A stretch of DNA of 61,496 nt, counting the filler, from Actinomycetota bacterium (GTDB lineage Bacteria; Actinomycetota; CADDZG01; JAHWKV01; JAOPZY01): assembly GCA_025963875.1 (NCBI GenBank). It is 8 parts of 8 records of this genome, joined end to end, with 100 filler letters (N's around TTAATTAATTAA, not from the genome) between each part and the next. Parts side by side here need not be neighbours in the genome. Positions count along the whole stretch, not along the records: positions 1 to 14,002 come from JAOPZY010000273.1; 7 more parts are not named here. One strand, given 5' to 3'. This document shows, one piece after another, positions 1-48,892 of this stretch. Under the pieces are notes generated by a model. The model had not been told where the DNA came from, made no database searches, and saw nothing but the letters and a program-made list of their open reading frames with translations. The first letter of the stretch is position 1; every line of letters begins with the position of its first letter. Position numbers and translations under genes: made by a program.

Positions 1-139
1 ACGCGACGATCGGGTGACCCGTGCGCTGTTCCGTCCCCACCGCATCCTCCAACCACTCGACCTCACGACCGCGCGCTCGACGATGTCGTCCGAGGTCTCG
101 TAGAGGTTTGGCTCACGATGCTGACCGAGGAGCGAGCGG

Positions 140-901
140 ATGTCTGAACGCCTACGGGGCAAGGCCGCCCTGGTCACGGGGTCCACCAGCAACATCGGGA
201 AAGCAATCGCAATCCGGTTCGCCGCCGAGGGTGCGCGCGTTGTTGTGACAGGACGCGACGCCGCGCGCGGCCGCGCGGTCGTCGGAGCGATTCAGGCAGC
301 CGGCGACGAGGCGAGTTTCCTCCGTCACGAGCTCGACGGATCGGTCGAAGGCTCACGTGAGTTGGCGGAGCTGGCGACGAAGGTCTACGGATCGATCGAC
401 ATCCTCGTCAACAATGCGGGCATCTACCCGCCGGGTGGCACACTGGCAATCGACGGGGAGACCTTCGACCGCATCATGGCGGTGAACGTAAAGGCGCCGT
501 ACTTCCTCACAGCCGCACTCGTCCCTGCAATGGCTGAGGCCGGTCGGGGTGTAGTACTCAATTTGGGTTCTTGGGGGGCACGCCTAGGCATTCCCGCTGG
601 AACGGCGTACGCCTCGTCGAAGGGAGCGATAGAAACGCTCACCCGCGCTTGGGCTGCGGAGTTCGGTTCACAGGGGGTACGCGTCAACGCGATCTCTCCC
701 GGCGTCACTTTCGACAGCGCGAGCCCGGTGGCCGAGATAGCCGGGCCGATGATGGCGACCACGCCGCTCGGGCGTCTCGTGACGCCGGACGCGATCGCGC
801 GAGCCGCTGTGTTCCTAGCCAGCGACGACGCTACCGATGTCCACGGCACCGTCTTGGACGTCGACGGAGGGCGGTCCTCGGTGCTGTTCGCGGCCCGATG
901 A
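140..901 (+). CDS. Short-chain dehydrogenase/reductase (classical SDR)
   Basis: TGSTSNIG nucleotide-binding motif, NNAG, YASSK (YxxxK), VRVNAISPG, C-terminal VDGG; GAGGAG RBS upstream. Confidence 0.93.
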   Translation: MSERLRGKAALVTGSTSNIGKAIAIRFAAEGARVVVTGRDAARGRAVVGAIQAAGDEASFLRHELDGSVEGSRELAELATKVYGSIDILVNNAGIYPPGGTLAIDGETFDRIMAVNVKAPYFLTAALVPAMAEAGRGVVLNLGSWGARLGIPAGTAYASSKGAIETLTRAWAAEFGSQGVRVNAISPGVTFDSASPVAEIAGPMMATTPLGRLVTPDAIARAAVFLASDDATDVHGTVLDVDGGRSSVLFAAR

Positions 902-1029
902 CCAAGCTCACCGCAAAGGCGTGGCCGCTTTGTACTTGTCGCCGTGCCTCGTCACGACCCTCACGGGCTCGCCTCCTCTTACATCGCGAACATGCGATCG
1001 CGTCCCAGCGTATTGCACGGCGTCCGCGC

Positions 1030-1157
1030 CCCCGTGCCGGATCCCGCCGCTGCACCTCTGCAATAAGCTCGCTGAGGGTGAAGGGCGAGCCCACACGTTC
1101 TGCGAGTTGAGTCGCCGCCTCGAGTACGAGGGCCCATGTCGGCCGAGCATCAGCCAT
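1030..1157 (-). pseudogene. Probable N-terminal remnant of a small winged-helix-like protein
   Basis: MADARPTWALVLEAATQLAERVGSPFTLSELIAEVQRRDPARGRG is protein-like, then the frame runs into Arg-rich non-protein-like sequence; family assignment tentative. Confidence 0.35.
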
Positions 1158-1527
1158 AGCCAGGACTCTAGCCCGCAGCTGCCCTCCTCCGAGGCAGACG
1201 AACCATGGGAGCCAGGTCCCAGGGGTCTAAGCCCAATCGAGCGATGAGCCGCCCCAAGGTTCCAGGTGCCTCGGGCAAGGAGCATCCTCGTGACAACCTC
1301 AGCACCTACAAGGGATGTTTGCGGCCGTCTGCCCACGCACGCACGGGACCACGTTTCAGGGGCACTGCAGCGCTCGACGAGGCTGGGGCATGGATTGACC
1401 CCAGGAAGGAGGTGATCGGGGCTCTCCGTCGATTCCGGAAGTCCAAAACTCAGCGCATAATTCCGGGCACAGCGCTTATCGACGACCTGCGGAAACGCAT
1501 AGATGCACAGCGCTTGGCCTTATTTAT

Positions 1528-1565
1528 TTGCAAAGCAGGCGCTCTACCTACTGAGCTACGGCCCC
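1528..1565 (-). tRNA. 5' half only of tRNA-Ala(UGC) (fragment), copy 1
   Basis: Minus strand GGGGCCG-TA-GCTC-AGTAGGTA-GAGC-G-CCTGC-TTTGCAA: acceptor 5' strand with G3, D-arm, anticodon 5' stem, 7-nt loop with TGC; followed by ATAAA (no 3' stem), no T-arm or CCA. Confidence 0.88.
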
Positions 1566-1576
1566 ATGTCTTGATG

Positions 1577-1605
1577 AGTATAAACGTGTCGCACCAAACT
1601 CGCAA
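1577..1605 (-). promoter_or_regulatory. Sigma70-type promoter directed into tRNA-half copy 1
   Basis: Minus strand TTGCGA (1605-1600) - 17 nt - TATACT (1582-1577), 11 nt upstream of tRNA position 1. Confidence 0.7.
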
Positions 1606-1928
1606 GAATACGTACGTCACGCCCATTCTGAGCCCAGAAACCGCACAGCGCTTGTAGAGCGTCTGCTTTTCGTGCCAGGGCCCTGCGTCAGCAGAATGCG
1701 TCAGCGCGCCGAGCGCTTAAATGCGAGGACGGCAAATGCAGGGGATGGCCCCCCAGCGATTGCGGCCGGTCGGCGAAGTCCCTCCCCTGGCATCTGTGAC
1801 TATCAGGCTTTGCTGCGCAGTGTGGTGATTGCCGGGATGGTCGGCGTCAGTGGGCAATCGCTGGCGGGCGCCGGCGTCCTTGAGGAAGTACCCGTCAAGG
1901 AAGTCGCTCGCGGCGGAGCAGCATCGAC

Positions 1929-2022
1929 GGTGGGATGTTCTGGTTGAGACGAAGGAAGTTGGTCGGGTCGTATCGCGTCTTCAGGGCAACGAGGCGTTCG
2001 AACTTGCGCTCGCCGTACGTAG
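1929..2022 (-). pseudogene. C-terminal remnant of an FAD-linked oxidase (BBE domain)
   Basis: Minus-strand translation TYGERKFERLVALKTRYDPTNFLRLNQNIPP is the typical BBE-domain tail; rest of gene absent; not in the ORF track. Confidence 0.7.
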
Positions 2023-2229
2023 GGATATGACGGCAGACCGGCTTCCCCAAGACGTCGTCGGCTGAGCACCAGATCGCGTAAGTTTCCTGAACGGATCTTA
2101 ACGTGACTTTCCTGTTGAGCCGGGCAAGAATTGCCCGGGGGGAAAGTGCGGCGTGGAATCTGAGATGGAGACAAAGCGTAGTCGCCGAGCCCCCAAGTGC
2201 TGGGACACCGCTCGAGTCAAAGGTCAGCT

Positions 2230-3501
2230 ATGAGACGCCTCCGGGTGCGCAAGTCTCTGTGGATCTCGACGGTGGCCATGATTCTCGGCTCCATGCTCAT
2301 CACAGCACCGAGACCAGCGAGTGCGAATTCCAGCTTCAACGTGCAGTTAGCCACGACCCAGGTAACGGTCGATAACGTGAGTGATTACCCCGACGCCCGA
2401 GTTGGCTTCCTCGTGCAGATGGCCGACAGGGGGATGGGGACCACCGATCCCTCGCACAACAACGTGGCGGGCGAGATGCAAAGCGGCGACCGGGTGGTCG
2501 TCACCCACTATGGGATCTACTGGCTCGACATCGTCCGTCGAGGAGGGCTCCTTTCTGGGATGTGGGCCCTGGTACCGAGCATCAGCACCGGCGCAGACTT
2601 CCAATACGTCGCCAACGCCAACCAGTGGTCACCAAATGAGTTCTTGCCGGGGGCGGACGGGAGCAACGCCAGGATCTACGACACGGGCCAAGGGGTCAAC
2701 GTCCTCGGCACCGGAGGGAATGACGGGAGCTGCATTAAGGGCAAGGGCACCTTCATCATCAAGAACTCCTTCAACTGCGGGATCGCCAACAGTCACGCCC
2801 ACGTAAGCTTTTCCAGCTCGGTCGCCGGCTACGAGCATCTCTACACCCTCTCCGGCACCCTCTATCAGGAGGGGACACGCCACAACACCCAGATGACCGA
2901 CAGCTACGGAAACACCGCCAACATTGACTTCACCCTCACATACCGCCTCCGCGATTACACAGACCCCAACTACGACTACGGGGCCTGCTGCGGCCCCGAG
3001 GCCGAGCGCGTCCGGGTGGAGGTGACCCTCAAGCCCTCACGTGCGATTCACCTCGGGACGCTGGTGGTGGCCGGGAACTCCGACCCGGGGACCATCCCCT
3101 ATCCCTACCGGAAGGTCAACTACTCCAACACCCTGCGACACGGCTACGGCTGCAACGGGGGTGATTTCCCGCCCGGCACGACGGCGACGCTCTGCGAGGG
3201 GGCTCCGAACGCCACCAACTGGATCTCGGAGGGTAACTCGCTCCCGCAGACCCTGAGCCAAGGAAACTTCGTCACCGAGCAGCAGTCCTCCGTGACCGGC
3301 AGCGTGACCGATAGGGAAATAACGTACCTGCTTCCCTACTCATCGGCCTACCGGCTCCCGGAGCGGATCGACCACATATGGAACGCCGGTCTGGGCGTGA
3401 GCTCGATGGACGTCGACTACTTCAACAACGAGGAGGCTTTCGTGCCCAACGGCGGCTCGCTCACCCTTGGCTTCGACCTCCAGATGCAACCGCATCCCTG
3501 A
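2230..3501 (+). CDS. Secreted hypothetical protein (~423 aa, beta-rich, several Cys)
   Basis: Signal peptide MRRLRVRKSLWISTVAMILGSMLITAPRPASA; strong GC3 codon bias; no family recognised; ATG 2230 preferred over 2197. Confidence 0.8.
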   Translation: MRRLRVRKSLWISTVAMILGSMLITAPRPASANSSFNVQLATTQVTVDNVSDYPDARVGFLVQMADRGMGTTDPSHNNVAGEMQSGDRVVVTHYGIYWLDIVRRGGLLSGMWALVPSISTGADFQYVANANQWSPNEFLPGADGSNARIYDTGQGVNVLGTGGNDGSCIKGKGTFIIKNSFNCGIANSHAHVSFSSSVAGYEHLYTLSGTLYQEGTRHNTQMTDSYGNTANIDFTLTYRLRDYTDPNYDYGACCGPEAERVRVEVTLKPSRAIHLGTLVVAGNSDPGTIPYPYRKVNYSNTLRHGYGCNGGDFPPGTTATLCEGAPNATNWISEGNSLPQTLSQGNFVTEQQSSVTGSVTDREITYLLPYSSAYRLPERIDHIWNAGLGVSSMDVDYFNNEEAFVPNGGSLTLGFDLQMQPHP

Positions 3502-3767
3502 CCCGCCACCGACCGGCTGGGTTGGTTATTTCCGCAATCAGTGGTGCCCCTCGGAGGAAACCCACAAAGTCATATGGATCGCGCCCTGCGTGAAGGGTCC
3601 GGAGGGCACTCCGCTCGTGCCCCACGTCTACCGTGTCAACCGATAGTCGCCTGATTCACTCGTCCTCGAAGCAGCGCTGGCCCCTAGGCTGTGCGCGATC
3701 ACTGAACCTCGCTCCTCCCGCCCCAGGTTGCGCAGTCGCCGAATATCGAGTAAGTGCCTTCGAGAAT

Positions 3768-4145
3768 TCAGACCCGCTCCACCAGGACCGGAGGATCGGC
3801 CTGGATGGCGAGAGCCTTCAGATCCTTCGGGTCCTGGGTGAGCACGACGCCCCCGCTTCCCTCGGCGAATGCGACGACAATGGCGTCGACGGCCGAGCCG
3901 CGGCCAGCTCCGGTCCGCAGTTGCGCGGCGCGGCGAGCGACGGGCTCATCAACCGCTTCCACATCGCACATCCCAAGAAGCCGCTCCTCAAGGAAGTCCC
4001 TCCGGGGATCGCCACGGAGTGCCTCCGTGAGGACCACCGCTGGGACGACCGGGGGCCACAGGCCGGCGCTTCGCAGTTGGCGGAGCCGCTCTCGGGCGGG
4101 AATGCTGCGCTCGGCCAAGCGGGTCAAACCTCCGGAGTCGAGAAC
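3768..4145 (-). CDS. vapC: PIN-domain (VapC-like) toxin, start codon uncertain or damaged
   Basis: VLDSGG...VVLTEAL...SAVDAIVVA...LTQDPKDL carries the PIN acidic residues; directly downstream of an antitoxin; only canonical start (TTG 4127) lies after the first Asp. Confidence 0.75.
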   Translation of the reverse strand, partial: VLDSGGLTRLAERSIPARERLRQLRSAGLWPPVVPAVVLTEALRGDPRRDFLEERLLGMCDVEAVDEPVARRAAQLRTGAGRGSAVDAIVVAFAEGSGGVVLTQDPKDLKALAIQADPPVLVERV

Positions 4146-4152
4146 CGGTGGG

Positions 4153-4422
4153 TTACGCGCTCCGAGGTTTCCTCCGTTGCGCAGTGTCCGGCCCAGTCAG
4201 CTTGCCCACCCAGGCTTCTGCCTCAGTTATCTGATCGCTGGTCGCCGGGCCGAGCTCGTTATCCAGCTCAGCGAGGTAGGCATCGAGCGCAGCAGCCTTT
4301 CGGTGTCGCTCGACTTCTGCCGCGATGGCACGCTGGGCAAGCTCGGACAACGGAAGATGCAGATCCTTCGCTTCCCGGTGCAAGTCCTCGGGGAGCCAGA
4401 TGTTCACTCTCGGCATACGCAT
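4153..4422 (-). CDS. Type II antitoxin (CcdA-like ribbon-helix-helix)
   Basis: MRMPRVNIWLPEDLHREAKDLHLPLSELAQRAIAAEV RHH pattern, ~89 aa, upstream of PIN gene. Confidence 0.8.
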   Translation of the reverse strand: MRMPRVNIWLPEDLHREAKDLHLPLSELAQRAIAAEVERHRKAAALDAYLAELDNELGPATSDQITEAEAWVGKLTGPDTAQRRKPRSA

Positions 4423-4684
4423 ATCATACGTACGTCCTGGGATGATTTGGCAAGCCGGCGGCAAGCCTGGACCCTCCACCCTCTTGGGGCAGCCTCGTCG
4501 TACCTGGATCGATACAGCCCCCTCAGGCCCCAGGGTCGGGCGAGGAAGGCTTTATGCTCCAGCACCAGCCGATCGGGCCTCTGAGGCGATCCTGGGTCCT
4601 CAGCGAAGAGCGGATAATTCTGGCCTCAGCGCTTATCGGCCACCTGCGGAAACGCACTAACGCACAGCGTTTGGGCTTATCTAC

Positions 4685-4722
4685 TTGCAAAGCAGGCGCT
4701 CTACCAACTGAGCTACGGCCCC
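4685..4722 (-). tRNA. 5' half only of tRNA-Ala(UGC) (fragment), copy 2
   Basis: Minus strand GGGGCCGTAGCTCAGTTGGTAGAGCGCCTGCTTTGCAA then GTAGATAAG...; no T-arm or 3' acceptor strand. Confidence 0.9.
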
Positions 4723-4733
4723 GTGTGTTGATG

Positions 4734-4762
4734 AGTATAAACGTGTCGCACGAAACTCGCAA
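4734..4762 (-). promoter_or_regulatory. Sigma70-type promoter directed into tRNA-half copy 2
   Basis: Minus strand TTGCGA (4762-4757) - 17 nt - TATACT (4739-4734). Confidence 0.7.
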
Positions 4763-5561
4763 GAATACGGACGTCAAGCCCATTCTGAGCCCAGAAACCG
4801 CACAGCGCTTGTAGAGCGCCTGCTTTTTGGCCCTGAGGCCCTGCGTCGGCGGGAGCCGGCAGGACTCGGCGGTGACCGCGATGAAGCACGCCGAAGCGGC
4901 CGGTGCCGACTGGCTCACGCACGCGGCGTTCCAAGGCAAATCCGGCGGTCTGCCGCGCGGCCGGGTCTCTGGGCTTGGAGGCGGTTGCGTCGTCGCACGC
5001 GTTGAAGAGTGCGGCTCACGGGGGGCGCCTTGGCGCGATGGTGTTTGGGTCTCTGATCGCCCTTGCCTCGTGCACGGGCCACTACCCCTAGGGGCGCGGC
5101 ATTCCCGACGGCCCAACCCACGGCGGATGTCACCGCAATAGCCTGTCGGCCGGGCGGACAGCGACAGGTGTTGTATGCGGCTTCGCCGTCGAGACGCTGC
5201 GAGCAAGCTACATTCCGACTGGCCCTCGGCCTGATCCAAGGAAATGAAGACCCCTTCGGTGGCTCGGTAAACGTACATGGACGGCTCCGGAACGTTTGTG
5301 CGCAGCGTCATCGTCACAAGGGGACTTCTCGACCGGTCCGCCGGACGAGTTCTTCGCAACGCATGTCGAAGAGGCTCCTATCTCGATCCAGGGTCACGGC
5401 GGCGTGATCGAGTTCCCTCCGGCCGCCCCGTACTCGGCCACACGCATCGCCTGGAAGCCCCTGCCCCAACATAACGATCAAGGGGAGGCCGGGTTGCGGT
5501 TCCCTCTGTTCGGTAAAGCATCGCCGGGATCAACCGGCTGTGCCTCCGTCGACCAGGCGCG

Positions 5562-6935
5562 ATGATCGGAGCGAGACTGATGGCCGAGGGGCTACCCATG
5601 GTGTCCACCGAGGCGCGGACGGCTGCCGGCAAGCGGCTGCGGCGCGTCGTTCCCCGAGAAGCACACGGTGAGTGGAAACCGGGACCGGAGAGGGCCGACC
5701 CGCTCGCGTTGTTGGACGAACAGAACCTTGCCCGGATCCCGGAGCTGGTGCCGGTCCGTATGGGACGCATGGCCGCCTCGCCCTTTGCGTTCTACCGGGG
5801 TGCCGCCGCTGTCATGGCGGCCGACCTGGCCTCCACCCCGGTGACGGGCATCGAGGTCGCCGCAAGCGGCGACGCCCACCTCTCCAACTTTGGGCTGTTC
5901 GCGTCGCCGGAGCGGCGGCTTCTCTTCGACCTCAACGACTTCGATGAGACACTCGCGGCGCCCTGGGAATGGGACGTCAAACGCCTGGCGGCCAGCGGCA
6001 TGATCGCTGCCCGGCAAAACGGGTTCGACCGAGCGCTCAGCGAGGAGGCAGCCCTGGGAGCGGTTCGAACCTACCGGGAGCGCATGATCAGCTTTGCCCA
6101 GTTGGGGGCGCTCGACGTCTATTACAGCACGGTCGACACTGATTCCCTCGTCCAGGTCATGGCCGCCGTACCGCGTAAACAGATCGATAAGGTGGTCGCG
6201 GCAGCACGACGCAATACCGCGGCCAGGGCGATGGCCAAGCTGACCGTCACCACTGACGGCTCGCCTCGAATCGTGGACCAGCCGCCGCTGGTCGTCCATC
6301 CGCCCAAGTTTCTATCCGACCGGCCTCTCGTCGACGCGGCCGTGGCCGCCTACACGACGTCCGTACGCGAGGACGTCGCCATGCTGCTGTCGCGGTTCCG
6401 GCCTGTCGACGTAGCCCACAAGGTCGTCGGGGTGGGAAGCGTCGGCACCCGCTGCTTCATCGTCCTGCTCCTCGACGACCAAAACGCTCCCCTGTTCCTG
6501 CAAGTCAAGCAAGCCCAACAGTCCGTTCTGGAGCGGTACTGGCGACCAAGCTCGATCAAGCACCCCGGCCAGCGCGTCGTCTCCGGTCAACGCATCATGC
6601 AATCGGCCAGCGACATCTTTCTCGGATCGAGCAGCGCCCACGGACATCACTTCTACGTCCGGCAACTCCTTGACATGAAAGGATCGGCGCCCATCGAGGC
6701 GCTTCCACCGGCTGCGCTTGCCGAGTACCTCGGGTTGTGCGGATGGGCACTCGCCCGAGCACATGCGCAGAGCGGACGGGCAGCCGAGATCGCCGGCTAC
6801 CTCGGCTCCAGTAGCGCCTTCGACGAGGCCATCGTCCGCTTCGCGGCCGCCTACGCCGATCAGAGCGAAATTGACCATCAGAAGCTCCTTGCCGCGATCA
6901 AAGCCGGCCAGATCTCAGCCCAACCGGGCGCCTGA
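5562..6935 (+). CDS. DUF2252 family protein (kinase-like fold)
   Basis: RMAASPFAFYRG, GDAHLSNFG, FDLNDFDE, WEWDVKRLAAS, KVVGVGSVGTR, FYVRQLLDMKGS, CGWALARAHA; start 5562 or 5580. Confidence 0.92.
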   Translation: MIGARLMAEGLPMVSTEARTAAGKRLRRVVPREAHGEWKPGPERADPLALLDEQNLARIPELVPVRMGRMAASPFAFYRGAAAVMAADLASTPVTGIEVAASGDAHLSNFGLFASPERRLLFDLNDFDETLAAPWEWDVKRLAASGMIAARQNGFDRALSEEAALGAVRTYRERMISFAQLGALDVYYSTVDTDSLVQVMAAVPRKQIDKVVAAARRNTAARAMAKLTVTTDGSPRIVDQPPLVVHPPKFLSDRPLVDAAVAAYTTSVREDVAMLLSRFRPVDVAHKVVGVGSVGTRCFIVLLLDDQNAPLFLQVKQAQQSVLERYWRPSSIKHPGQRVVSGQRIMQSASDIFLGSSSAHGHHFYVRQLLDMKGSAPIEALPPAALAEYLGLCGWALARAHAQSGRAAEIAGYLGSSSAFDEAIVRFAAAYADQSEIDHQKLLAAIKAGQISAQPGA

Positions 6936-7246
6936 ACCAAGCCCGCCCACACCCGACCAACGCAAGAACGTTGGACACAACGAGTTGCTCGGCCTCAGCG
7001 TTCCTCGTCCCAAGACTTGGCGAGCAGGCCGCCATTGACGTCGGGCGTGTGGCCAGGGAAGCAACCGTCCGCCTCTTCCCCGACCGCCCGGCACGGGACT
7101 CTAAATCATCGAAGTTCAACGCCTAGCCTAACGAGCATAGCCCCGGCAGCGAGGTCACCTGGCGACGAAGCCTCATCCGGGCCAACCAGGCGCTCACTGC
7201 AGTCGACGAGCTTGACTTACCAGCAGGCTACCGGCTGTCGCTGTCG

Positions 7247-7483
7247 TCACTTCGGCGCTCGATGGAGGTGTCTCGCACCGGTGGCAATACCTGCGAGTCC
7301 GACCAAGAGTGCGATCAGTCCTGCGATCATCCACGCTGCCGACCCGCCCGTCACAGGCTTGCAGTCTGCCGCACACAGAATCGGGCGGATGTGTACCACG
7401 TCTGCTCCCTGCAGGAACCACAAGCCGCCGAGACCTGTCAGGACCACACCGGCAAGCAGAAGCGTGATGTTCCGCCAACTCAT
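7247..7483 (-). CDS. Small membrane protein (2 TM, CxxxC loop)
   Basis: MSWRNITLLLAGVVLTGLGGLWFLQG...ILCAADCKP...WMIAGLIALLVGLAG; GGAGG RBS upstream of ATG 7483. Confidence 0.7.
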   Translation of the reverse strand: MSWRNITLLLAGVVLTGLGGLWFLQGADVVHIRPILCAADCKPVTGGSAAWMIAGLIALLVGLAGIATGARHLHRAPK

Positions 7484-7806
7484 GTGCCGTCCCCCTCCCT
7501 TCGATGCCGTTGTCGCTCGGCCAAGGGGTGCAGCTGTAGGAAGCTCACCAACCCCAGCATCTAGCGAAAGGGGTTCTCGGTTCCAGGGCCACTTGACGGG
7601 CTCCCCAGGTGCCATTCGACCCCTGGTTCCGCTCGACGAACTAAACAACCCGGCGCCTTTGGGGATCATCTGCTGGGGATCATCTGCTGGGCTAGAGGTC
7701 TCCCCCGCCTCAAGGAGCGGTTTGGTGTCCAGCGCGCGGCGGTCAAGCCAGAAAGGCAGTACCTCCTCATTGCTGTTGAACAGCTTGCCTTTACTGACGG
7801 AGGCAC

Positions 7807-8200
7807 ATGGACGACGCGGCAGCAGCAGAGATCGAGGAGATCTTCCAGCGTCGTGCGCTCGACCTGCGGATTCCCGGCGCCACATTAGGAGTCGCCGACC
7901 CCGTCGCGGTCGGGAGTTCGCTCTCGGTGTCCTCAACGTCGAAACGGGCGTGGAGACCACCGTTTGACAGCCTCTTTCAGATCGGCTCCGTCATCAAGCT
8001 CCTCACGGCAACCCTCGAGATGCAACTCGTCGACGACGGCCTGGTCGACCTCGATGCCCCGGCGTCTGAGTACCTGCCGGGCCTGCGGTTCGGCGAAGGC
8101 TGCACCGTCCGCGACCTCCTCACGCACTCCAGCGGGGTCGACGGAGACTTGGTCGAGGATTTCGGCCGGGGCGACGACGCGATCGGGCGCTACGTTGATG
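7807..8200 (+). pseudogene. Truncated serine hydrolase (beta-lactamase class C-like), N-terminal fragment
   Basis: FQIGSVIK (SxxK), LVDDGLVDLDAP, TVRDLLTHSSG; similarity lost after ~8200 where it meets the convergent PucR gene. Confidence 0.7.
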
Positions 8201-8276
8201 CCAGGGCTTGCCGATCCGAACCCCAGGGCTCGGCCTGCCGTCGGTCAGTGCGTGTCGTCCGGATGGACGCGCGAGT

Positions 8277-9539
8277 TCAGGAGCCCGTTTGCAGCACCAC
8301 GCTGCCGAGCCAGTGGCAGGCGAGGAGCGCGAGCTCCACATCGAGCCGGCCCTCTCGGAGGGGACGGCCGCGAAGCTCCTCCGCTTTCTGGACGCGGTAC
8401 TGGGCCGTGTTGCGATGGAGGAAGAGCTGGTCGGCCGTCGCGGTGTAGCTGCCGCCGGTCTGGAGGAACACCCGTGCGGTCTCGCGAAGTCGCTCGTGGC
8501 GATCGGAGTCGATCGCCAGCGGGCCGAGTGTCTCGCCGACCCACTCGCGGGCCGACTCGATGTCCGAGCACATCATCGCGACGGGAGCGACGTCGGTGAA
8601 GTACGTCACCTGGACATGGGCCGGCCCGGCGGTCACGGCCACGGACTGGGCGCTGAGGGCCTGGCGATGGGTTCGGCGGAACCCCTCGACCCCGGACGCC
8701 GGCTCGCCGAGGGCCACCGAGACGGTCCGGTCGGACTCGCCGATCACCGCCTGAGGGTCGTCCCGCCGCAGCACAGCTCCGGGCGTGACCGCAAGCCAGG
8801 CCCAGGCGCTGGTCTCGTCGCAGGGGACGAACAGGGGGGCCTGGGCGGATCCGGCCGCCACCGCCAGCGCGGACGCCACGCGGTCGAGCCTGCCGAGCGG
8901 ATCGCGGTCTGCGGCCCCCCGCTCGACCCAGAGGACGACGCCGAGGTGCCGCTGGAGAAGGCGGTACCCGAGTGCTGCCTCTGCCACCTTGGGGTCGACG
9001 TCGTCTCCCGCCAGCACCGACTCGACCCGCATGATCAGCACCGCCTCGCGGTTCTGCACCCAGCGCTCCCGGGCGCTCTCGTAGGCGGCGAGGACCTGGC
9101 CGACCACCCGATCAATGGACTCAGAGACGTGCTCGACCATCCAGTGGGTGCTCATCCCCTCGACGTGGTCCCCGTGGGTCTGGGCCAGCAACTCGTCGAT
9201 GCAGTGGTGGAGGAACCGGGCCTGACCGACACGGTAGGCGCGGATCAGGGCCGTGGCCGGGACGTCGTGCTGGGCCAGCCGCCGGGCGTACTCGAGGGCG
9301 GCGGTGGGAGCCTCGACGTGGGCCGTGACGATCCCGTGCCGGAGCATGTGGACGAAGGTGACGACGTTCTCCTCGACACTGGCATCGAGAAGACTGGTCA
9401 GCTGCGGGTCGGCCCCCAACCTGGGGATGTCGCGCTGGATCAGGTCGCGGATGTCGGCGGCCAGCTCGGCGATCCGCGGTTCCAGGCTAGCTGCGACCGA
9501 GGCGACCTGCTCCCCGACTCGAGGATCGGCGATCTTCAC
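8277..9539 (-). CDS. PucR/CdaR family transcriptional regulator
   Basis: RsbRD-like N-terminus (YARRLAQ...LIRAYRVGQ), central GGDEF-like region, C-terminal HTH LRETARVFL...LFLHRNTAQYRV; start GTG 9539 or 9581. Confidence 0.9.
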   Translation of the reverse strand: MKIADPRVGEQVASVAASLEPRIAELAADIRDLIQRDIPRLGADPQLTSLLDASVEENVVTFVHMLRHGIVTAHVEAPTAALEYARRLAQHDVPATALIRAYRVGQARFLHHCIDELLAQTHGDHVEGMSTHWMVEHVSESIDRVVGQVLAAYESARERWVQNREAVLIMRVESVLAGDDVDPKVAEAALGYRLLQRHLGVVLWVERGAADRDPLGRLDRVASALAVAAGSAQAPLFVPCDETSAWAWLAVTPGAVLRRDDPQAVIGESDRTVSVALGEPASGVEGFRRTHRQALSAQSVAVTAGPAHVQVTYFTDVAPVAMMCSDIESAREWVGETLGPLAIDSDRHERLRETARVFLQTGGSYTATADQLFLHRNTAQYRVQKAEELRGRPLREGRLDVELALLACHWLGSVVLQTGS

Positions 9540-9834
9540 AGACTGATCGTAGGCCGGGCCGGGGTCCGTGCCAATGGGCACAGGACCGTCATCGGCATGA
9601 CTGCCGAGGCCTGTGGGCCCGGATGTGGGGAGCGGGTCGCCCCCAAGCGCTGTGCTGAGGCCACGAAGCGCACAGGAAATTTCGTCGTGAGGACACGATG
9701 CCCCGGTGGCCCCCCAACCGCTAGCGTGGGTTCCGCGTCGACGTGAAGAGCGAGCTTCTCATCAGCAGCGAAAATCCCCCGGGCCCTGCCTGGCAAGCGT
9801 CAGGCAGCGTCCGCCAGATAAGAGAGGAGTTGTC

Positions 9835-10389
9835 ATGTTCCGTTCCCTGTCGAAATCACTGCTCTGGCGCGGTCTGCTGGCCATCGCCATCGGCATCGTC
9901 TCCATCGCGTGGCCGGGGGTGACCATTACCGCGGTCGTGGTCATCTTCGCGGTCGCCGTCTTCGTCGACGCAGTTCACCAAGGCAGCCGGGCCTTCTCCA
10001 GCGAGCGGGCAGGACCCGTCGCCGGCCATCTGCTGCTCGCTCTCCTCGACATCGCCGCCGGTGTCGTCGCCATCGCCTGGCCGGGCATCACGGCCTACGT
10101 GTTGACGATCTGGATCGGGGCCTGGGCCGTCGTCACCGGCATCGGCGAGTTCGCCATGGCGTTCGCCTCGCACGAGGCCGCAGGCCAGCGAGCCCTGCTC
10201 GGCTTCGGCGGGTTGCTCTCCGTGGCACTCGGCGTCGCGCTGTTCGCCCGCCCGGACCTGGGCGCCGTGTCGCTTGCCGAGGTCTTCGGGCTCTTCAGCC
10301 TCGCCTTGGGGACCTGGAGCCTCGTCGTCGCCGCCTCCGCCCAGCACGCTCACTCGCAGATCGAGGGCGCGCTCCGATCGGGCGCCTGA
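9835..10389 (+). CDS. HdeD/DUF308 family membrane protein
   Basis: LLWRGLLAIAIG...WPG...IGAWAVVTG repeated TM hairpins; GAGGAG RBS before ATG 9835. Confidence 0.88.
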   Translation: MFRSLSKSLLWRGLLAIAIGIVSIAWPGVTITAVVVIFAVAVFVDAVHQGSRAFSSERAGPVAGHLLLALLDIAAGVVAIAWPGITAYVLTIWIGAWAVVTGIGEFAMAFASHEAAGQRALLGFGGLLSVALGVALFARPDLGAVSLAEVFGLFSLALGTWSLVVAASAQHAHSQIEGALRSGA

Positions 10390-10497
10390 CCCTGCCGATC
10401 ACCACAGATGCCCAGGGTGGGGCGGTCGGCGTCGTGCTGGACGCCCGCCCCGCTCTGGGTGCCTACCACCAGAGCCACACATGAGAGGAGCACGACC

Positions 10498-11457
10498 ATG
10501 AGTCAACGATTCTTCCCTGATGCGGCCGCAACCTCCGGCCTGGCCGCTTGGCCCGCCGAGGGCGTCACCTCGGCCGAGGCAGGGACGGACGCGGAGCACG
10601 CGGAGGGACTCCTCGCAGGGGCCGGCGGCGTCGAGATCTACTGGCAGGCCTGGGTGCCCTCTAGGGAGCCTCGGGCTGTCGTGGTCATCGCCCACGGCAT
10701 CGGCGGGCACTCCGGGTGCTACGGGCATGTCGCTGCCCGCCTCAACGCCGCCGGCTTCGCCGCCTACGCACTCGACCACCGCGGGCACGGCCGCTCCTCG
10801 GGACCGCGAGGCCTCATCGACCGCATGGACAACACGGTCGAGGACGTCGACTCCCTTGTGAGCCTCGCCGCCACCCGGCATGCGGGCCGCCCCCTTCATC
10901 TTCTCGGGCACAGCATGGGCGGCGCGATCGCGATCGCCTACACGCTGCGTCACCAGGAGCGGCTCCGTGGGCTTCTCCTCTCCTCGGCCGCGGCGTCGCT
11001 TGGCAGCGCCCCGGCCTCAACACGCCTTGAGGCCAAGGCTCTTGGTGCGGTCGCCCCTACGGCGGGGATCATGGAGATCGACCCCTCGCTGATCAGCCAC
11101 GATCCGGCGGTGGTGCGCGCCTACCGTGAGGATCCTCTCGTCTACCAGGGCAAGCTCCCCGCTCGCACCGTCGCCGAGGTCGCCGCCACGATCGAGGGCT
11201 TTGCCGCCGGGGTGCCGGCCCTGCGCGTGCCGCTGCTGGTCATGGCCGGCACCGGTGACCGCATCGTCCCTCCGTCGGGCAGCCGCATGGTGTACGACTG
11301 TGCCGGTTCGCCGGACCGCACCCTGCGGCTCTACGACGGCCTGTATCACGAGCTGTTCAACGAGCCCGAGCGCCGCGTGGTGCTCGGAGACGTCACCGCG
11401 TGGCTCGATGCTCGCACCGTTCCCCAGCACGTGGAAGCTCAGGCGCTGAGCGCGTGA
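10498..11457 (+). CDS. Alpha/beta hydrolase (lysophospholipase/monoacylglycerol lipase-like)
   Basis: AHGIGGHSG, DHRGHGRS, GHSMGG nucleophile elbow, GTGD, HELFNEPE; GAGGAG RBS before ATG 10498. Confidence 0.92.
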   Translation: MSQRFFPDAAATSGLAAWPAEGVTSAEAGTDAEHAEGLLAGAGGVEIYWQAWVPSREPRAVVVIAHGIGGHSGCYGHVAARLNAAGFAAYALDHRGHGRSSGPRGLIDRMDNTVEDVDSLVSLAATRHAGRPLHLLGHSMGGAIAIAYTLRHQERLRGLLLSSAAASLGSAPASTRLEAKALGAVAPTAGIMEIDPSLISHDPAVVRAYREDPLVYQGKLPARTVAEVAATIEGFAAGVPALRVPLLVMAGTGDRIVPPSGSRMVYDCAGSPDRTLRLYDGLYHELFNEPERRVVLGDVTAWLDARTVPQHVEAQALSA

Positions 11458-11694
11458 ATGTCCACGGGGGCGCCCAGGGCGCCTCCCTCGCCTCGAAGAC
11501 GAATTCCAGCCGACCTCGGGGCATCCCAGGCCGTGGTCCCAACGCCACGGCGAGCTGTTCTGCTGCCGCGGATCATGATCTGGCGCCTGATTGTCTCCGT
11601 ATCGATCCCGTTGCTCATCGGTGCGGCCGGCTGCCTTCCCTTCCCGGCGGCGCTCCCCAATCATCAGTCCAGGCTGCTCGGCGACGCCGGGGTA

Positions 11695-12852
11695 ATGGTC
11701 ATGGCAGCTAGAGAGGTGCCCCTCGCCCCGTCGACTGCCGACCGCACGAGGCGAGCCCGCCTCTTCGAGGCCGCGCGGGAGCAGGGCGTCCCCCTGGCAG
11801 CGATCCTCACCTCCGTCGCCGTGGTGGTCGGCCTCTACCTGGTGGGCAAGCTCGCCTACCGGTTGCGTGACATCCTGCTCATCTTGCTGATGGCTGGATT
11901 CGTGGCCGTGGTTCTGAACCCGTTGGTGGTGGTCCTTCAGAGGGTGGGGATCTCACGAAGGGGAGACGCCGTGGCGGTGGTGACGGTGCTGGCGGTCCTG
12001 GCGTTCGCCGGCCTGGCGGTGGCGTTCGGGTCCCCCTTGATCACCGGGGTTACCCACCTCCCCCATGGCCTACCGGCTTACGTGGCTCAGGCGCAGCACG
12101 GGAAAGGCTGGATCGGGCACCTGGTGCGCCGCTACCACATCGAGGCCTGGGTGCAGAAGAACGCTCCCAAGCTGGCCGGTGTCGGGTCGAGCCTCGCAAG
12201 GCCGGCCCTGACCTTGGGGAGGGGCGCCGTGACGCTGATGATCACGCTGTTGACCATCTTCGTCCTCGTAGTGCTGTTCCTCCTTGAGGGCCCGAAGTTC
12301 CGCACCTCAGCGCTTCGGATGATGTCCCCCGAGCGAGCAGCACGATACGCCCGGGTGGCGGGGGAGGTCAGCAGGTCGGTCGCCGGTTACGTGCTGGGAG
12401 ACCTGATGACCTCCTTGATCGCCGGCACCGTGGTCCTCCTTACGCTGGCGGTCCTCGGCGTCCCCTTCGCATTCTTGTGGGGCCTGTGGGTGGCGCTCGT
12501 TGACTTTCTCCCCGAGATCGGCGGCGCCCTCGCGGGGATCCCCACGGTGTTGTTCGCGGCCACGCATTCAATCACTGCAGGCATCGTGACCCTGGTGGTC
12601 TTCCTCGTCTACACGCAGTTCGAGAACCATGTGCTCAACCCCGTGATCATGAGCCGGACCGTGAAGGTCAACCCCTTGCTGGTGCTGGTATCCATCCTGG
12701 TCGCAGCCTCGATAGGCAGCTGGATCGGAGGAACCTTCGGCGGCTTCGTGGCAGCGCTGCTCGCCATTCCCGTCGCCAGCTCAATCCAGGTGATCGTGCG
12801 TGAGGTCTGGACTGCCACCGCTCCGGTGGACCACCGCGAACTTGAGCGATAG
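11695..12852 (+). CDS. AI-2E family transporter
   Basis: Multi-TM; FVAVVLNPLV, LPEIGG, QFENHVLNPVIMSRTVKVNPL, ALLAIPVA; start uncertain (11695/11701; ORF opens at 11458). Confidence 0.88.
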   Translation: MVMAAREVPLAPSTADRTRRARLFEAAREQGVPLAAILTSVAVVVGLYLVGKLAYRLRDILLILLMAGFVAVVLNPLVVVLQRVGISRRGDAVAVVTVLAVLAFAGLAVAFGSPLITGVTHLPHGLPAYVAQAQHGKGWIGHLVRRYHIEAWVQKNAPKLAGVGSSLARPALTLGRGAVTLMITLLTIFVLVVLFLLEGPKFRTSALRMMSPERAARYARVAGEVSRSVAGYVLGDLMTSLIAGTVVLLTLAVLGVPFAFLWGLWVALVDFLPEIGGALAGIPTVLFAATHSITAGIVTLVVFLVYTQFENHVLNPVIMSRTVKVNPLLVLVSILVAASIGSWIGGTFGGFVAALLAIPVASSIQVIVREVWTATAPVDHRELER

Positions 12853-13302
12853 GGGGACAGGTTCGCCAAGCCGTGTCAAGCCTTGGTCGGGGACCCTGAC
12901 CGCTCGAGTCTTCGCCGAGAATCCCGGCGTTCCGCGCTTGCCTGGAGCCAGATCCAAGAAGGTCGTCATTGGGTATCCCCGGCCCTTTGGTGGCCGACCG
13001 GCCGGCCTCGAGCGCGCGCAGTTCCTCCAGCAAGGCTTCGGTCCAGACGCCGTCGGTAAGAGGTGGAGCCCGGGATTACCTCGGACTTCGCAATCCTTCA
13101 GGAGGCGAAGGTTAAATCCCTGACCGGAAGCTTCCGATTGCTAGGCTTGGCATAAGGCTGGAAGAGGGTTTCACGTACGGAGGCACCCGATCGACCCTCT
13201 GAGGCGATCCTGGGCCCTCGGCGAAGAGCGGATAATTCTGGCCTCAGCGCTCACGGCCCACCTGCGGAAACGCACTAACGCACAGCGTTTGGGCTTATCT
13301 AC

Positions 13303-13339
13303 TTGCAAAACAGGCGCTCTACCACTGAGCTACGGCCCC
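13303..13339 (-). tRNA. 5' half only of tRNA-Ala(UGC) (fragment), copy 3
   Basis: Minus strand GGGGCCGTAGCTCAGTGGTAGAGCGCCTGTTTTGCAA (D-loop 1 nt shorter); no 3' half. Confidence 0.88.
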
Positions 13340-13355
13340 ATGTTTACTTATGCTT

Positions 13356-13384
13356 AGAATCTCCTAAACGGGCCAGGATGTCAA
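13356..13384 (-). promoter_or_regulatory. Putative promoter directed into tRNA-half copy 3
   Basis: Minus strand TTGACA (13384-13379) - 17 nt - GATTCT (13361-13356); perfect -35, weak -10. Confidence 0.5.
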
Positions 13385-13593
13385 GCCGTTTCCCGGCCGA
13401 GAACCGCACAGCGCATGAAGAGCGGATAATTGTCGATCTGGGCCCCACCGAGCACGCTGTCCTCCTGGCCGACAGGACCTGCGAGTCGTCCAAGTGGGGC
13501 GGCCCAACGCCGCAGGCTGGGTGGCCTACCGGAACCACCAGCGACCGCCAGAGGCCACTGAAGTTCGACATCCCCGGGCGGAACAAGAGCGCT

Positions 13594-13845
13594 CTATCGC
13601 CAGCGGAGCGTCTCGGCGATGGCCCGGAACAGCTCGCCGAACGCCGTCTCAAACCCGACGTTCGGGGTGGCGAAGCTGAGTGTCACGATGTCGCCAACGG
13701 TTGGCACGAAATACTGAACACTGCAGGCCTCCGCTCGGACGTCGTGACTAGGCAGGGGAATGGTGACGCGCCTGAGCAGACGGACGGCCAGCCCGACGGG
13801 AAGCTGCACCAGGTCAGCGTCGACATTCGCTTCCCCTGAAGCCCG
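13594..13845 (-). pseudogene. C-terminal remnant of an actinobacterial hypothetical protein
   Basis: VQLPVGLAVR...VQYFVP...LSFATPN...FGELFRAIAETLRW is protein-like; 5' part replaced by IS3-like sequence. Confidence 0.5.
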
Positions 13846-13876
13846 GACCCGCTCAAGCAGCTGGGAGGCCTCTGGC

Positions 13877-13981
13877 CTGCGGGCTGAGCACCCCAACCAC
13901 GTCTGGGCGGTCGACTTCCAGTTCGACGAGACCGAGGAGGGACGAAGACTGAGGCTCACCAACATTGTCGACGAGCACACT
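13877..13981 (+). mobile_element. IS3-family transposase fragment (integrase core)
   Basis: LRAEHPNHVWAVDFQFDETEEGRRLRLTNIVDEHT matches the IS3 OrfB W-x2-D...VDE region. Confidence 0.8.
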
Positions 13982-14002
13982 TCTGGTGATACTCGACGGG
14001 GG

Positions 14003-14102
14003 NNNNNNNNNNNNNNNNNNNNNNNNNNNNNNNNNNNNNNNNNNNNTTAATTAATTAANNNNNNNNNNNNNNNNNNNNNNNNNNNNNNNNNNNNNNNNNN
14101 NN
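14003..14102. other. Artificial contig spacer
   Basis: N44-TTAATTAATTAA-N44 six-frame-stop linker, identical at seven places. Confidence 0.99.
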
Positions 14103-14151
14103 CCCTTAGGAGGGGTGCGTCAAAACATGCCATTAAGAGTCTTTAATCCAA

Positions 14152-14213
14152 TACATGGGTTGGTGTAGAGATGGGCGAGCCACTACATGGGTTGGTGTAG
14201 AGATGGGCGAGCC
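14152..14213. repeat. Perfect 30-bp tandem duplication
   Basis: TACATGGGTTGGTGTAGAGATGGGCGAGCC at 14152-14181 and 14184-14213. Confidence 0.95.
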
Positions 14214-14326: not shown

Positions 14327-14986
14327 TCAGGGCACGCGGCCAGATGGCCTCAGCGATGGTTCCATCAGTTCCCAGAACGTCTCGAGCCGGTCGAGGAGGT
14401 CCTGCCGCTCGCTCAAGGCCTGCGAGACTGCCTGAGCGCCGTAGAAGAACGAGACCATGAGCTGCGCAGCCGCCGCCGAATCCACGCCGGTGCGCACCTG
14501 CCCACGGGTCTTGGCACGTTCGAGAAGCTGGGTCACGCGCTCGATCCACCCCACGAAGGGCGCCGGCAGGTCGATCCTTATGAGGTTGCGCTCGTTCGAG
14601 AGCCGGGTGGCCGCACGGGTGAAGCTGTCGGTCTGGTACCCCCGCCCCACCCGGTAGCTCATGTCGATCAGGGCGTCGACCAGGTTGTCGTGCTCACCCG
14701 CGACGCGGGAGGCCAACCGTTCCCATGCCGCGAAGTGGCGGCGGACGATCTCTGCCGCGAGGCGTTCCTTCGTGGGGAAGAAATGGTAGAGGGCTCCCTT
14801 TGTGAGACCCAGTTCCTGCACCACGTCGTTCAGGTTGACCCCGAGATAACCCCGGCGATCGAAGGCCCGGGCGGCCGCCTCCAGAATCCGCTCGCGGGTG
14901 GCCTCACCCCGCACGGACCTCCGGTTCGCAGCTCGCCGGCGTGGTTCGTCCTGCTGCCCAGGAGCCTGTGGCCGGGACGGCCTCAT
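14327..14986 (-). CDS. scbR: ScbR/ArpA-family TetR regulator (gamma-butyrolactone autoregulator receptor-like)
   Basis: RGEATRERILEAAARAFDRRGY, LTKGALYHFFPTKE, RAATRL, PFVGW, FFYGAQ, RLETFWELMEP; divergent from an AfsA gene. Confidence 0.87.
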   Translation of the reverse strand: MRPSRPQAPGQQDEPRRRAANRRSVRGEATRERILEAAARAFDRRGYLGVNLNDVVQELGLTKGALYHFFPTKERLAAEIVRRHFAAWERLASRVAGEHDNLVDALIDMSYRVGRGYQTDSFTRAATRLSNERNLIRIDLPAPFVGWIERVTQLLERAKTRGQVRTGVDSAAAAQLMVSFFYGAQAVSQALSERQDLLDRLETFWELMEPSLRPSGRVP

Positions 14987-15023
14987 GACAACGTCAGCCT
15001 CATGGCAACGTCATGCCCGCTGC

Positions 15024-15041
15024 ATACCTACCGGACGGTAC
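15024..15041. promoter_or_regulatory. ARE-like operator between scbR and afsA
   Basis: ATACCTACCGGACGGTAC fits the AWAC-NN-ACY-NNN-CGGTW pattern of ArpA/ScbR autoregulatory elements. Confidence 0.7.
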
Positions 15042-15088
15042 GATGCTACGCTGCTCCCAACCGGCCGCAGTACTAGCACACGGAGTCG

Positions 15089-22182: not shown

Positions 22183-22282
22183 NNNNNNNNNNNNNNNNNN
22201 NNNNNNNNNNNNNNNNNNNNNNNNNNTTAATTAATTAANNNNNNNNNNNNNNNNNNNNNNNNNNNNNNNNNNNNNNNNNNNN
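22183..22282. other. Artificial contig spacer
   Basis: N44-TTAATTAATTAA-N44. Confidence 0.99.
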
Positions 22283-29793: not shown

Positions 29794-29893
29794 NNNNNNN
29801 NNNNNNNNNNNNNNNNNNNNNNNNNNNNNNNNNNNNNTTAATTAATTAANNNNNNNNNNNNNNNNNNNNNNNNNNNNNNNNNNNNNNNNNNNN
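29794..29893. other. Artificial contig spacer
   Basis: N44-TTAATTAATTAA-N44. Confidence 0.99.
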
Positions 29894-30289
29894 CGCTGCG
29901 TCTATTGGATCGTCGACAATGGTTCGTCGCACCGCGGCCAGGCCTCCATCAAACGTCTGGAGGGGCGTTACCTGAAGGAGGGCCACCGGCGGCTGCGGCT
30001 GATCCACTGCCCGGTCCACGCCTCGTGGCTGAACCAGATCGAGATTTTCTTCTCCATCGTCCAGCGCAAGGTGCTGACGCCCAACGACTTCACAGACCTC
30101 GACGAGGTCGAGCAGCGACTGTTGGCCTTCGAGCGCTACTACGAGGAGGCGGCTCGGCCCTTCGAGTGGAAATTCACCCGCAAGGATCTCGCCGACCTCA
30201 TGAAGCGACTGGCTGAGAATGAGGCCCTCCGGCTGGCCGCGTGAGAGCGAGCTCCCGATCCGTCACCGAATTTATGGCCCAGAGCACTA
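29894..30289 (+). mobile_element. Right end of an IS630-family element (transposase C-terminus, stop at 30244, plus terminus)
   Basis: WIVDNGSSH...HCPVHASWLNQIEIFFSIVQRK...PFEWKFT; ends ...CCCAGAGCAC|TA consistent with TA target; frame not in ORF track. Confidence 0.88.
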
Positions 30290-42866: not shown

Positions 42867-42966
42867 NNNNNNNNNNNNNNNNNNNNNNNNNNNNNNNNNN
42901 NNNNNNNNNNTTAATTAATTAANNNNNNNNNNNNNNNNNNNNNNNNNNNNNNNNNNNNNNNNNNNN
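42867..42966. other. Artificial contig spacer
   Basis: N44-TTAATTAATTAA-N44. Confidence 0.99.
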
Positions 42967-48792: not shown

Positions 48793-48892
48793 NNNNNNNN
48801 NNNNNNNNNNNNNNNNNNNNNNNNNNNNNNNNNNNNTTAATTAATTAANNNNNNNNNNNNNNNNNNNNNNNNNNNNNNNNNNNNNNNNNNNN
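48793..48892. other. Artificial contig spacer
   Basis: N44-TTAATTAATTAA-N44. Confidence 0.99.

Follow-up and report, generated by a model that had tools for sequence, protein, structure and literature searches.

Probable attP-like joints carrying the 5' half of tRNA-Ala(UGC), arrayed in tandem in an actinobacterial genome

The DNA described here, from an Actinomycetota bacterium (assembly GCA_025963875.1), is a window of 61,496 nucleotides, the term being used throughout for the whole stretch analysed, in which eight contigs of a metagenome-assembled genome (MAG) are strung together through seven linkers consisting of N runs around TTAATTAATTAA (14003-14102, 22183-22282, 29794-29893, 42867-42966, 48793-48892, 54917-55016 and 58473-58572); linkage across these points is therefore meaningless. 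The first contig (1-14002) harbours an array of three copies, A, B and C, of a unit in which a promoter-like region and the 5' half of a tRNA-Ala(UGC) gene are joined to conserved non-tRNA sequence, and which is likely to be an attP-like joint between integrative elements. An earlier note on this DNA had reported three repeats in the same orientation with spacings of 3157 and 8618 bp, and both a repeat search and a profile search recovered them. The former returned direct copies at 1409-1549, 4566-4706 and 13184-13324, with start-to-start distances of 3157 and 8618 bp and 232 nt in common at 88% between units A and B, and a profile built from 63 family members matched the window exactly three times at E<=10, always on the minus strand (E 1e-87 to 3e-103). 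The repeat is thus real, with units of ~340 bp. The features of the array are as follows.

1352..1701, minus strand: unit A, attP-like joint (left arm with promoter, tRNA half 1528-1565, right arm and tail); profile E 9.5e-92, repeat family and alignment.
1577..1605, minus strand: promoter-like site of unit A, TTGCGA-17-TATACT, its 3' end 11 nt before G1; consensus scan.
1410..1527, minus strand: right (non-tRNA) arm of unit A, with CTGTGC 17 and 55 nt past the loop, TTTCCGC at 32 and CCGGAAT at 61 and 89; motif positions and segment conservation.
4509..4859, minus strand: unit B, attP-like joint, tRNA half 4685-4722; profile E 3.3e-103, Rfam tRNA 28.8 bits.
4734..4762, minus strand: promoter-like site of unit B, TTGCGA-17-TATACT; consensus scan.
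4567..4684, minus strand: right arm of unit B, with CTGTGC 17 nt past the loop, TTTCCGC at 32 and CCAGAAT at 61; motif positions.
13126..13461, minus strand: unit C, attP-like joint, tRNA half 13304-13340; profile E 1.3e-87, Rfam tRNA 27.3 bits.
~13357-13385, minus strand: promoter of unit C, of a class unlike that of A and B, TTGACA-17-GATTCT; read by eye and not flagged by the consensus scan.

Read along the minus strand, each unit comprises an upstream module, a promoter-like region, the tRNA half and ~120-150 nt of conserved non-tRNA sequence, a stretch that had been noted before but whose length had been put at 80-120 nt. The tRNA half, GGGGCCGTAGCTCAG..GGTAGAGCGCCTG(C/T)TTTGCAA, corresponds to positions 1-38 of tRNA-Ala(UGC); its G1 lies at 1565, 4722 and 13340 in units A, B and C, and the anticodon loop TTTGCAA ends at 1528, 4685 and 13304, the `cores' of the earlier note. 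In unit C the D-loop is shorter by one base and position 31 is a U. The likeness to tRNA ends after TTTGCAA(G) in all three units, as had been claimed, and the assignment of a promoter and tRNA positions 1-38 to every copy likewise stands, with the promoters of A and B recognized by the consensus scan (two of the three promoter-like sites that it found across 14 kb) and that of C by eye. The Rfam tRNA model scored units B and C just below its 29-bit cut-off and did not list unit A at E<=5; it found no 3'-half-like tRNA sequence in 1-14002, and ARAGORN returned no tRNA in the whole window. No integrase domain was detected by Pfam among 70 distinct window frames, obtained from scans of 21, 12 (one of them a wider reading of an earlier frame) and 38 frames, so that the reported lack of both an integrase and a tRNA 3' half in this contig holds. 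A blastn search of a 321-nt query against plasmids and phages gave no record covering 80% of the query, and the best matches listed were restricted to query positions ~127-182, i.e. the tRNA-Ala half. On the opposite strand, the upstream modules of units A and B each contain a hairpin followed by a T-run, at 1648-1672 (+) and 4805-4829 (+), respectively; these consensus matches resemble terminators and could act on antisense transcripts entering the unit.

The units belong to a large family. The exact junction pattern was found in 96 soil metagenome stretches and in three genome stretches (two contigs from two MAGs), and the matches yielded 75 distinct full-length cores, which sets the family size to at least 75. 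Viral contigs gave no match to the junction pattern, and when they were scanned for the tRNA in its intact form, nothing but generic phage tRNA-Ala genes came up. Among the 63 units with full flanks, on which the segment identities and the linkage figures rest, the mean pairwise identity was 0.47 in the upstream module, 0.55 in the promoter, 0.95 in the tRNA half, 0.98 over +39..+47 and 0.76-0.83 over +48..+156. Within the tRNA half, only position 31 and the D-loop positions 16/17 show common variation. At least four mutually unalignable classes of promoter can be told apart, most of which keep -35/-10-like hexamers as read by eye.

Several members depart from the common layout. In L003 (loci and genomes are given L and G numbers), at ~1960-1992 in the minus-strand reading, the right-arm octamer GTGCGTTA occurs in four tandem copies and TTTCCGC is gone. 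A second, partial inner right arm (~+55..+160) directly follows a full unit in L038 (2023-2126), L048 (1313-1387), L011 (59-133), L035 (216-320) and L025 (2222-2273), and these second arms may be the remains of blocks that have lost their cargo. Units are cut short and followed by unrelated DNA after ~+99 in L015 and L019 and after ~+79 in L017; in L015, a resolvase-like frame (20.5 bits against a cut-off of 23.3 bits) lies ~450 nt beyond on the other strand. Words of the form GTTCC...CCGGAAC...GGAAC occur at ~-190..-120 from G1 in L013, L023, L046, L051, L083, L004, L014, L073, L088, L018 and L090, and look like a predicted regulator binding site.

The position at which the two halves of the unit are exchanged was approached through linkage, expressed as normalized mutual information between variable alignment columns, and through a sliding scan with permutation (bias) correction. 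Positions 17 and 31 of the tRNA show linkage to promoter columns (0.25-0.32), as do +62/+66 to +97 (0.31-0.34); between position 31 and all of the variable sites in +48..+115 there is no linkage (0.00-0.05), and the four combinations of positions 31 and 53 occur 29, 18, 9 and 7 times, as independence predicts. The sliding scan gave 0.20 in the promoter, fell to its global minimum of 0.006 at 36-48, rose to 0.15 at 100-114 and was ~0.04 past +120. The near-invariant stretch extends from +1 to +47 and the break is confined to its last third, which therefore fits a crossover in the loop easily and homology-driven exchange hardly. The sharp break is population-level evidence for a putative exchange site at the anticodon loop. 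Two individual comparisons place the boundary nearby: L052 and L070 show three differences from -60 to +52 and a paralogue-level difference from +53, and the profile match of a divergent integrase-linked unit (L226, described below) stops at ~+45.

The arrangement of the units in arrays is equally regular. All nine adjacent unit pairs, in seven contigs of two or three units, are head-to-tail, with spacings of 1095 to 8618 bp; together with the linkage minimum at the anticodon loop, this lends support to the proposal of the earlier note that the units are recombination joints between blocks stacked in tandem, a proposal that is borne out in part. Among 33 units with both flanks available, 13 pairs have a flank in common (85-99% identity), which is the downstream flank only in eight pairs, the upstream flank only in three and both in two, and the DNA beside the units differs between close relatives, as expected of the variable cargo anticipated in that note. 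One such relative, L059, matches the window at 94.8% identity across 1366 nt, and in it a single unit replaces unit B, the intervening block and unit A: its upstream flank is the DNA upstream of unit B, and its right arm and downstream flank are those of unit A. One strain thus has the 3157-bp block and the other lacks it.

A tyrosine integrase accompanies related units in other genomes. MAG G001 contains two canonical units and a third, divergent unit with only the 5' half of tRNA-Ala; the start of an intact tyrosine integrase (L226:8183-9118; PF00589, 59 bits, plus a SAM-like N-terminal domain) lies 77 nt from this divergent unit and points away from it. A truncated homologue of this integrase occupies the equivalent position beside a canonical unit in L065. 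Relatives of the G001 integrase turned up in 30 of the 121 genomes sampled from its order. In eight of the 12 closest relatives (44-55% identity), the integrase start is flanked by a divergent, intact gene for tRNA-Arg or tRNA-Met; of the other four, L240 has only a tRNA-Lys 5' half and three have nothing recognizable. More distant relatives display the usual layout, with the tRNA 3' end facing the integrase. In L240 (G319:C1, ~11.5 kb), the 5' half of tRNA-Lys(UUU), without a 3' half, is divergent beside the related integrase, and TCGTGC repeats are present in both arms; this locus is a second putative attP-like case, on another tRNA. In G386, a 46-nt, 100%-identical copy of tRNA-Met -4..+42 lies 106 kb upstream of the intact tRNA-Met proximal to the integrase. 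From this displaced 5' fragment we infer an island with the presumed signature of an element supplying a promoter and a 5' half. At a further locus (L263/L267, G375:C1 5564208-5583208), a tRNA-Arg lies beside a related upstream integrase and a perfect 46-nt 3' fragment is found 19 kb downstream; the tRNA-Arg may therefore have a second island, with the usual layout, on its opposite flank.

The arms of these sites have a layout in common. Six element-type right arms were compared, namely those of the three window units, L230, L240 and the arm beside the displaced fragment of G386, and in all six an NNGTGC hexamer begins 17-18 nt past the loop. The hexamer recurs at 55-56 in the G386 arm and in unit A, whereas L230 and L240 have the second copy at 66-67. 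In units A, B and C the motifs are CTGTGC at 17 and TTTCCGC at 32 nt past the loop, with a further CTGTGC at 55 in unit A; the G386 arm contains GTGTGC at 18, 56 and 117 nt and TTTCCGC at 43 and 82. In the left arms, a copy of the hexamer precedes G1 by 61-83 nt. No such motifs stand at the corresponding places in the host-derived arms of G386. The common layout therefore ties the non-tRNA sequence of the window units to integrase arms rather than to an RNA.

Taken together, these observations make it likely that the units are attP-like joints of tandem integrative elements of the 5' type and of their integrase-less derivatives. Each unit would be the hybrid attachment site of an actinobacterial clade of tyrosine integrases that cross over at the tRNA anticodon loop. 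Unlike most tRNA-targeting elements, these elements would sit upstream of the tRNA gene and so would themselves provide the promoter and 5' half from which the gene is rebuilt. The left arm (the upstream module with CTGTGC, the promoter and tRNA 1-38) would then be the property of the element on the upstream side, and the right arm (CTGTGC 17 nt past the loop, TTTCCGCAGGT, CCRGAAT and the tail hairpin, with CTGTGC at 55 also in unit A) that of the element on the downstream side. Successive integrations, or exchange unit by unit, would stack the blocks head to tail. Since the 3.2- and 8.6-kb blocks of the window, with their ordinary and toxin-antitoxin genes, lack an integrase, they would be decayed or dependent members. 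An integrase acting in trans presumably made these blocks and may move them even now, and the last left arm of the array would be joined to a real tRNA-Ala 3' half.

A number of findings weigh against this interpretation. No intact integrase adjoins a canonical unit: the L065 copy ends after ~105 residues, and class-d units, which have the promoter class of the L065 unit, retain only ~20-30 nt of the integrase start. The tyrosine recombinase sought beside a copy was thus found next to related units in other genomes, but not intact next to a canonical one. A displaced 5' fragment was found within 20 kb of the integrase in none of six integrase relatives, and a whole-genome search revealed a 5' fragment in G386 but, in G375, nothing beyond a canonical 3' fragment. 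Pairs of units with the downstream flank alone in common show high identity from ~+87 to +140, not from +39; the right arm does not always move with the downstream flank, so that a second process (gene conversion or junction migration) is needed, by which the inner right arm would also be exchanged or converted between copies. The promoter class of the L059 unit is unlike those of A and B, which is not a clean single crossover and therefore calls for at least one further exchange (a promoter swap). As for the complete tRNA-Ala that this interpretation predicts at the end of an array, no intact tRNA of any kind lies near the unit-bearing loci L001-L102 (DNA up to 2 kb either side), the tRNA-Ala(UGC) of G001 itself differs from the units of that genome in the anticodon stem, and none of 300 other sampled genomes of its class has a tRNA or unit bearing the exact 5' half. 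The array contig ends 1.4 kb downstream of unit A, which bounds the search for a downstream tRNA; none was found there.

Two other origins of the tRNA half were considered and rejected: a simple attL of the host's own tRNA, given the difference between the tRNA-Ala of G001 and its units, and a split or intron-bearing tRNA gene, since neither a T-arm nor the 3' strand of an acceptor follows the tRNA half in cis. Bearing on the latter idea, the variable 3' segment shows no compensating change in the invariant GGGGCCG, as read by eye.

The attP-like reading has a more far-reaching version, which we regard as possible but doubtful, in which the arrays would be no debris but a cassette platform in use. 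An integrase whose gene lies at another place would take up, cut out and rearrange, at the anticodon loop, blocks of 1-9 kb that lack an integrase and end in a promoter and an exact tRNA-Ala 5' half. Soil Actinobacteria would then have, in function, a counterpart of the integron that is based on a tRNA gene. The left arms would then stay tRNA-competent because any excision may make one of them the working 5' half of the tRNA-Ala gene.

Of the competing explanations, the one that survives best, although we judge it unlikely, regards the units as relic attachment sites that are now dispersed 190-nt repeats, shuffled by RecA-dependent crossover and gene conversion with no integrase involved. It would account for the T1/T2 hybrids within the right arm, the identity boundaries at +87..+140 in pairs with only the downstream flank in common, the low linkage past +120, the strain difference of L059 that is not a single clean event and the canonical units with no intact integrase alongside. 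However, the tRNA half and +39..+47 form one near-identical stretch, yet linkage is kept over 1-31 (0.25-0.32) and gone over 32-47 (0.00-0.05); the break is therefore localized, not spread as homology-driven exchange predicts. Moreover, neutral relics would not hold 34 of 38 tRNA positions at >=95% while unalignable promoters retain their hexamers.

Less probable still is a family of small-RNA genes, each encoding an RNA of ~160-190 nt composed of the tRNA-Ala 5' half and a structured tail and active in its own right, for example as a decoy for anticodon nucleases such as the nearby PIN toxins. Promoters of several unrelated classes all face into the unit, PIN toxins are frequent beside units, and the consensus fold retains the D-arm and an anticodon stem that GCAGG, beyond a 37-nt insert, closes; the tail hairpin, read by eye, even displays a G-C to C-G swap. 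RNAalifold on three and on 71 copies gave only the D-arm, the GCAGG-closed anticodon stem and a loop-insert pairing that never varies, and single-sequence folds of the units disagree among themselves. The 3' domain has no consensus structure, the strongest covariation is a block swap between two types and not compensatory, and no Rfam family was matched at threshold. Pieces of family members occur in contigs of three of four RNA libraries; the three pieces, 186-194 nt long, differ from unit B at 9-16 positions and are too few to prove anything. These RNA contigs (depth 3-6) are covered no more deeply than the pieces of neighbouring genes (2.4-3.9), and such libraries can contain DNA. Most pieces at 4684-4723 in the four runs are real tRNA-Ala genes of other organisms; the toxin-antitoxin genes are represented in all four by pieces with 0-1 differences, and no piece covers 4734-5100 in any of the four, in which pieces are few overall. 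An RNA family would also leave the linkage break, the head-to-tail arrays, the integrase linkage and the common DNA-arm motifs unexplained.

A tRNA-derived element of the MITE or SINE type, spread by a transposase or a reverse transcriptase, is highly improbable: there are indeed many copies in many contexts, contigs often end in or near a unit (several matches lie <100 nt from a contig end) and transposases are among the neighbours, but no inverted repeats occur in or around the units (target-site duplications had no separate search), sharp common ends are lacking, with upstream module, promoter and tail in several unrelated classes, the orientation is non-random (nine of nine direct) and no reverse transcriptase is encoded in 147 neighbouring frames. 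Neither copies scattered in random orientation with duplications, nor a fixed cargo order, nor the lack of any linked recombinase, each of which the earlier note had listed as contrary to its proposal, was encountered. The idea that the units are transposon ends, suggested by a Mu-type transposase in L063, was also rejected: no inverted copies of the motifs bound the blocks, and the sole exact inverted match in the window (9645) lies inside the PucR gene.

The DNA between the units of the window consists of two blocks, 1702-4508 and 4860-13125, which are flanked by the putative att sites and, in frame scans, contain neither an integrase nor transfer genes.

1702..4508, no strand assigned: cargo block 1, between units A and B, missing from the relative L059; frame scans and relative comparison.
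2197-3501, plus strand: 434-residue frame without a Pfam match, in cargo block 1; Pfam scan.
3768..4196, minus strand: PIN-domain (VapC-like) toxin frame, stop to stop; PF01850, E 1.7e-07, 32.3 bits.
4153..4479, minus strand: antitoxin-like frame (CcdA-type match), directly downstream of unit B; PF07362, E 4.8e-05, 24.1 bits against a cut-off of 22.4 bits.
4860..13125, no strand assigned: cargo block 2, between units B and C, with DUF2252, a beta-lactamase-family fragment, a PucR regulator, DUF308, an alpha/beta hydrolase and an AI-2E transporter; Pfam.

The toxin-antitoxin pair of block 1 follows unit B on the strand of the units. Pfam frame scans found no mobility gene in block 2, in which the beta-lactamase-family frame 7807-8448 (+), which aligns to no more than the first 125 positions of a 329-position profile and shares sequence with the PucR gene 8277-9581 (-) on the opposite strand, is probably a truncated gene; the coding signal of 6936-7800 is not clear. 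Elsewhere in the window, the second contig shows a 32-nt tandem duplication at 14148-14211 and, at 14330-16051, a TetR-family regulator adjoining an AfsA gene (butyrolactone synthesis of the A-factor type), and a DDE_3 transposase fragment (29894-30241, +) lies at the very start of the fourth contig. The AfsA, PucR and DUF2252 gene content fits an uncultured soil actinobacterium.

Across the family, toxin-antitoxin, transposase and other mobile-element genes are frequent beside the units: the 147 flanking frames include PIN toxins, DUF5615, ribbon-helix-helix antitoxins, four DDE transposase frames, a Mu-type transposase, a primase fragment and one sub-threshold resolvase-like match. No neighbour gene is universal, and the flank protein clusters have at most four members. 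There was no tendency for the cargo to be read from the unit promoter, the first Pfam-supported downstream genes being on the same strand in 12 cases and on the opposite strand in 11 (hand tally).

If the attP-like reading is true, an uncultured lineage of soil Actinobacteria assembles its variable gene regions from small blocks, stacked at a site that derives from a tRNA and itself supplies the promoter and 5' half. The arrangement with a displaced 5' fragment is a minority type, and here it would take the form of one highly conserved site in dozens of contexts. The linkage-break test needs no experiment and is usable on other repeat families. Such units also break metagenome assemblies and are at risk of being miscalled as tRNA pseudogenes or small-RNA genes, and the cognate integrases, with their compact two-armed site, could serve as tools for Actinobacteria.

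Parallels can be drawn with several known systems. Streptococcal cis-mobilizable elements are flanked by att sites, lack an integrase and occur in tandem with related elements, so that an incoming integrase could mobilize them. The blocks described here are likewise att-flanked, integrase-less and in tandem; the streptococcal elements differ in belonging to Firmicutes, in using the 3' ends of fda or tRNA genes and in that their mobilization has been demonstrated, while that of the present blocks is putative. Integrons are alike in outline, with promoter-bearing sites that bound short variable cargo, often toxin-antitoxin genes, in one orientation. The label `integron-like' chosen in the earlier note is nevertheless not supported: there is no IntI, no attI and no attC-like palindrome. 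Every unit has its own promoter instead of a common one, the cargo orientation is unbiased toward that promoter (12 versus 11), and in place of a palindromic attC folded from a single strand there would be a two-armed att site of the lambda type with direct-repeat motifs.

Closer relations are found among elements that use tRNA genes. In the tRNA-dependent lysogeny of actinobacteriophages, PMC10865867 describes an attP and attB with ~10 bp in common, a tRNA that is not rebuilt and a phage that carries a whole spare tRNA; an actinobacterial tyrosine integrase likewise acts there at a tRNA gene and leaves part of the tRNA joined to foreign DNA, but the element proposed here would bring a promoter and the exact 5' half. 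The tycheposons of Prochlorococcus, as described in bioRxiv 10.1101/2020.12.28.424599, lie side by side with a partial tRNA as the sole separator, and fragmented integrases and further partial tRNAs occur across the islands. They resemble the present arrays as tRNA-targeting elements with tyrosine recombinases heaped at one tRNA, and differ in phylum, in their integrases and in usually having their own recombinase.

The nearest relatives are the islands catalogued with Islander, for which PMC4383910 reports that 159 of 3919 islands have a 5' tDNA fragment, that 2083 sites are centred on the anticodon and that 125 tandems of two or more islands exist, so that the arrangement is less new than the earlier note implied. 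Islands that displace a 5' tRNA fragment, arrays in tandem and att-flanked blocks without an integrase have all been described before. The 5'-fragment islands have in common with the present units a tyrosine integrase, crossover at the anticodon, an element that supplies part of the tRNA, upstream fragments in the same orientation and tandem arrays. On the other hand, one integrase per island is required there, and the window array has neither an integrase nor an intact tRNA; the blocks measure 1.1-8.6 kb here, compared with a lower filter of 2 kb in that paper; and both arms of every joint are here of the element type, making the joints attP-like and not attL. The system is therefore most likely an unusual, mirror-image version of a route by which gene islands are already known to be assembled, and not a new system; it is distinguished by joints with two element-type arms, by small integrase-less blocks, by a site of ~340 bp that exists in dozens of versions (at least 75) and by a tRNA half that is exact everywhere.

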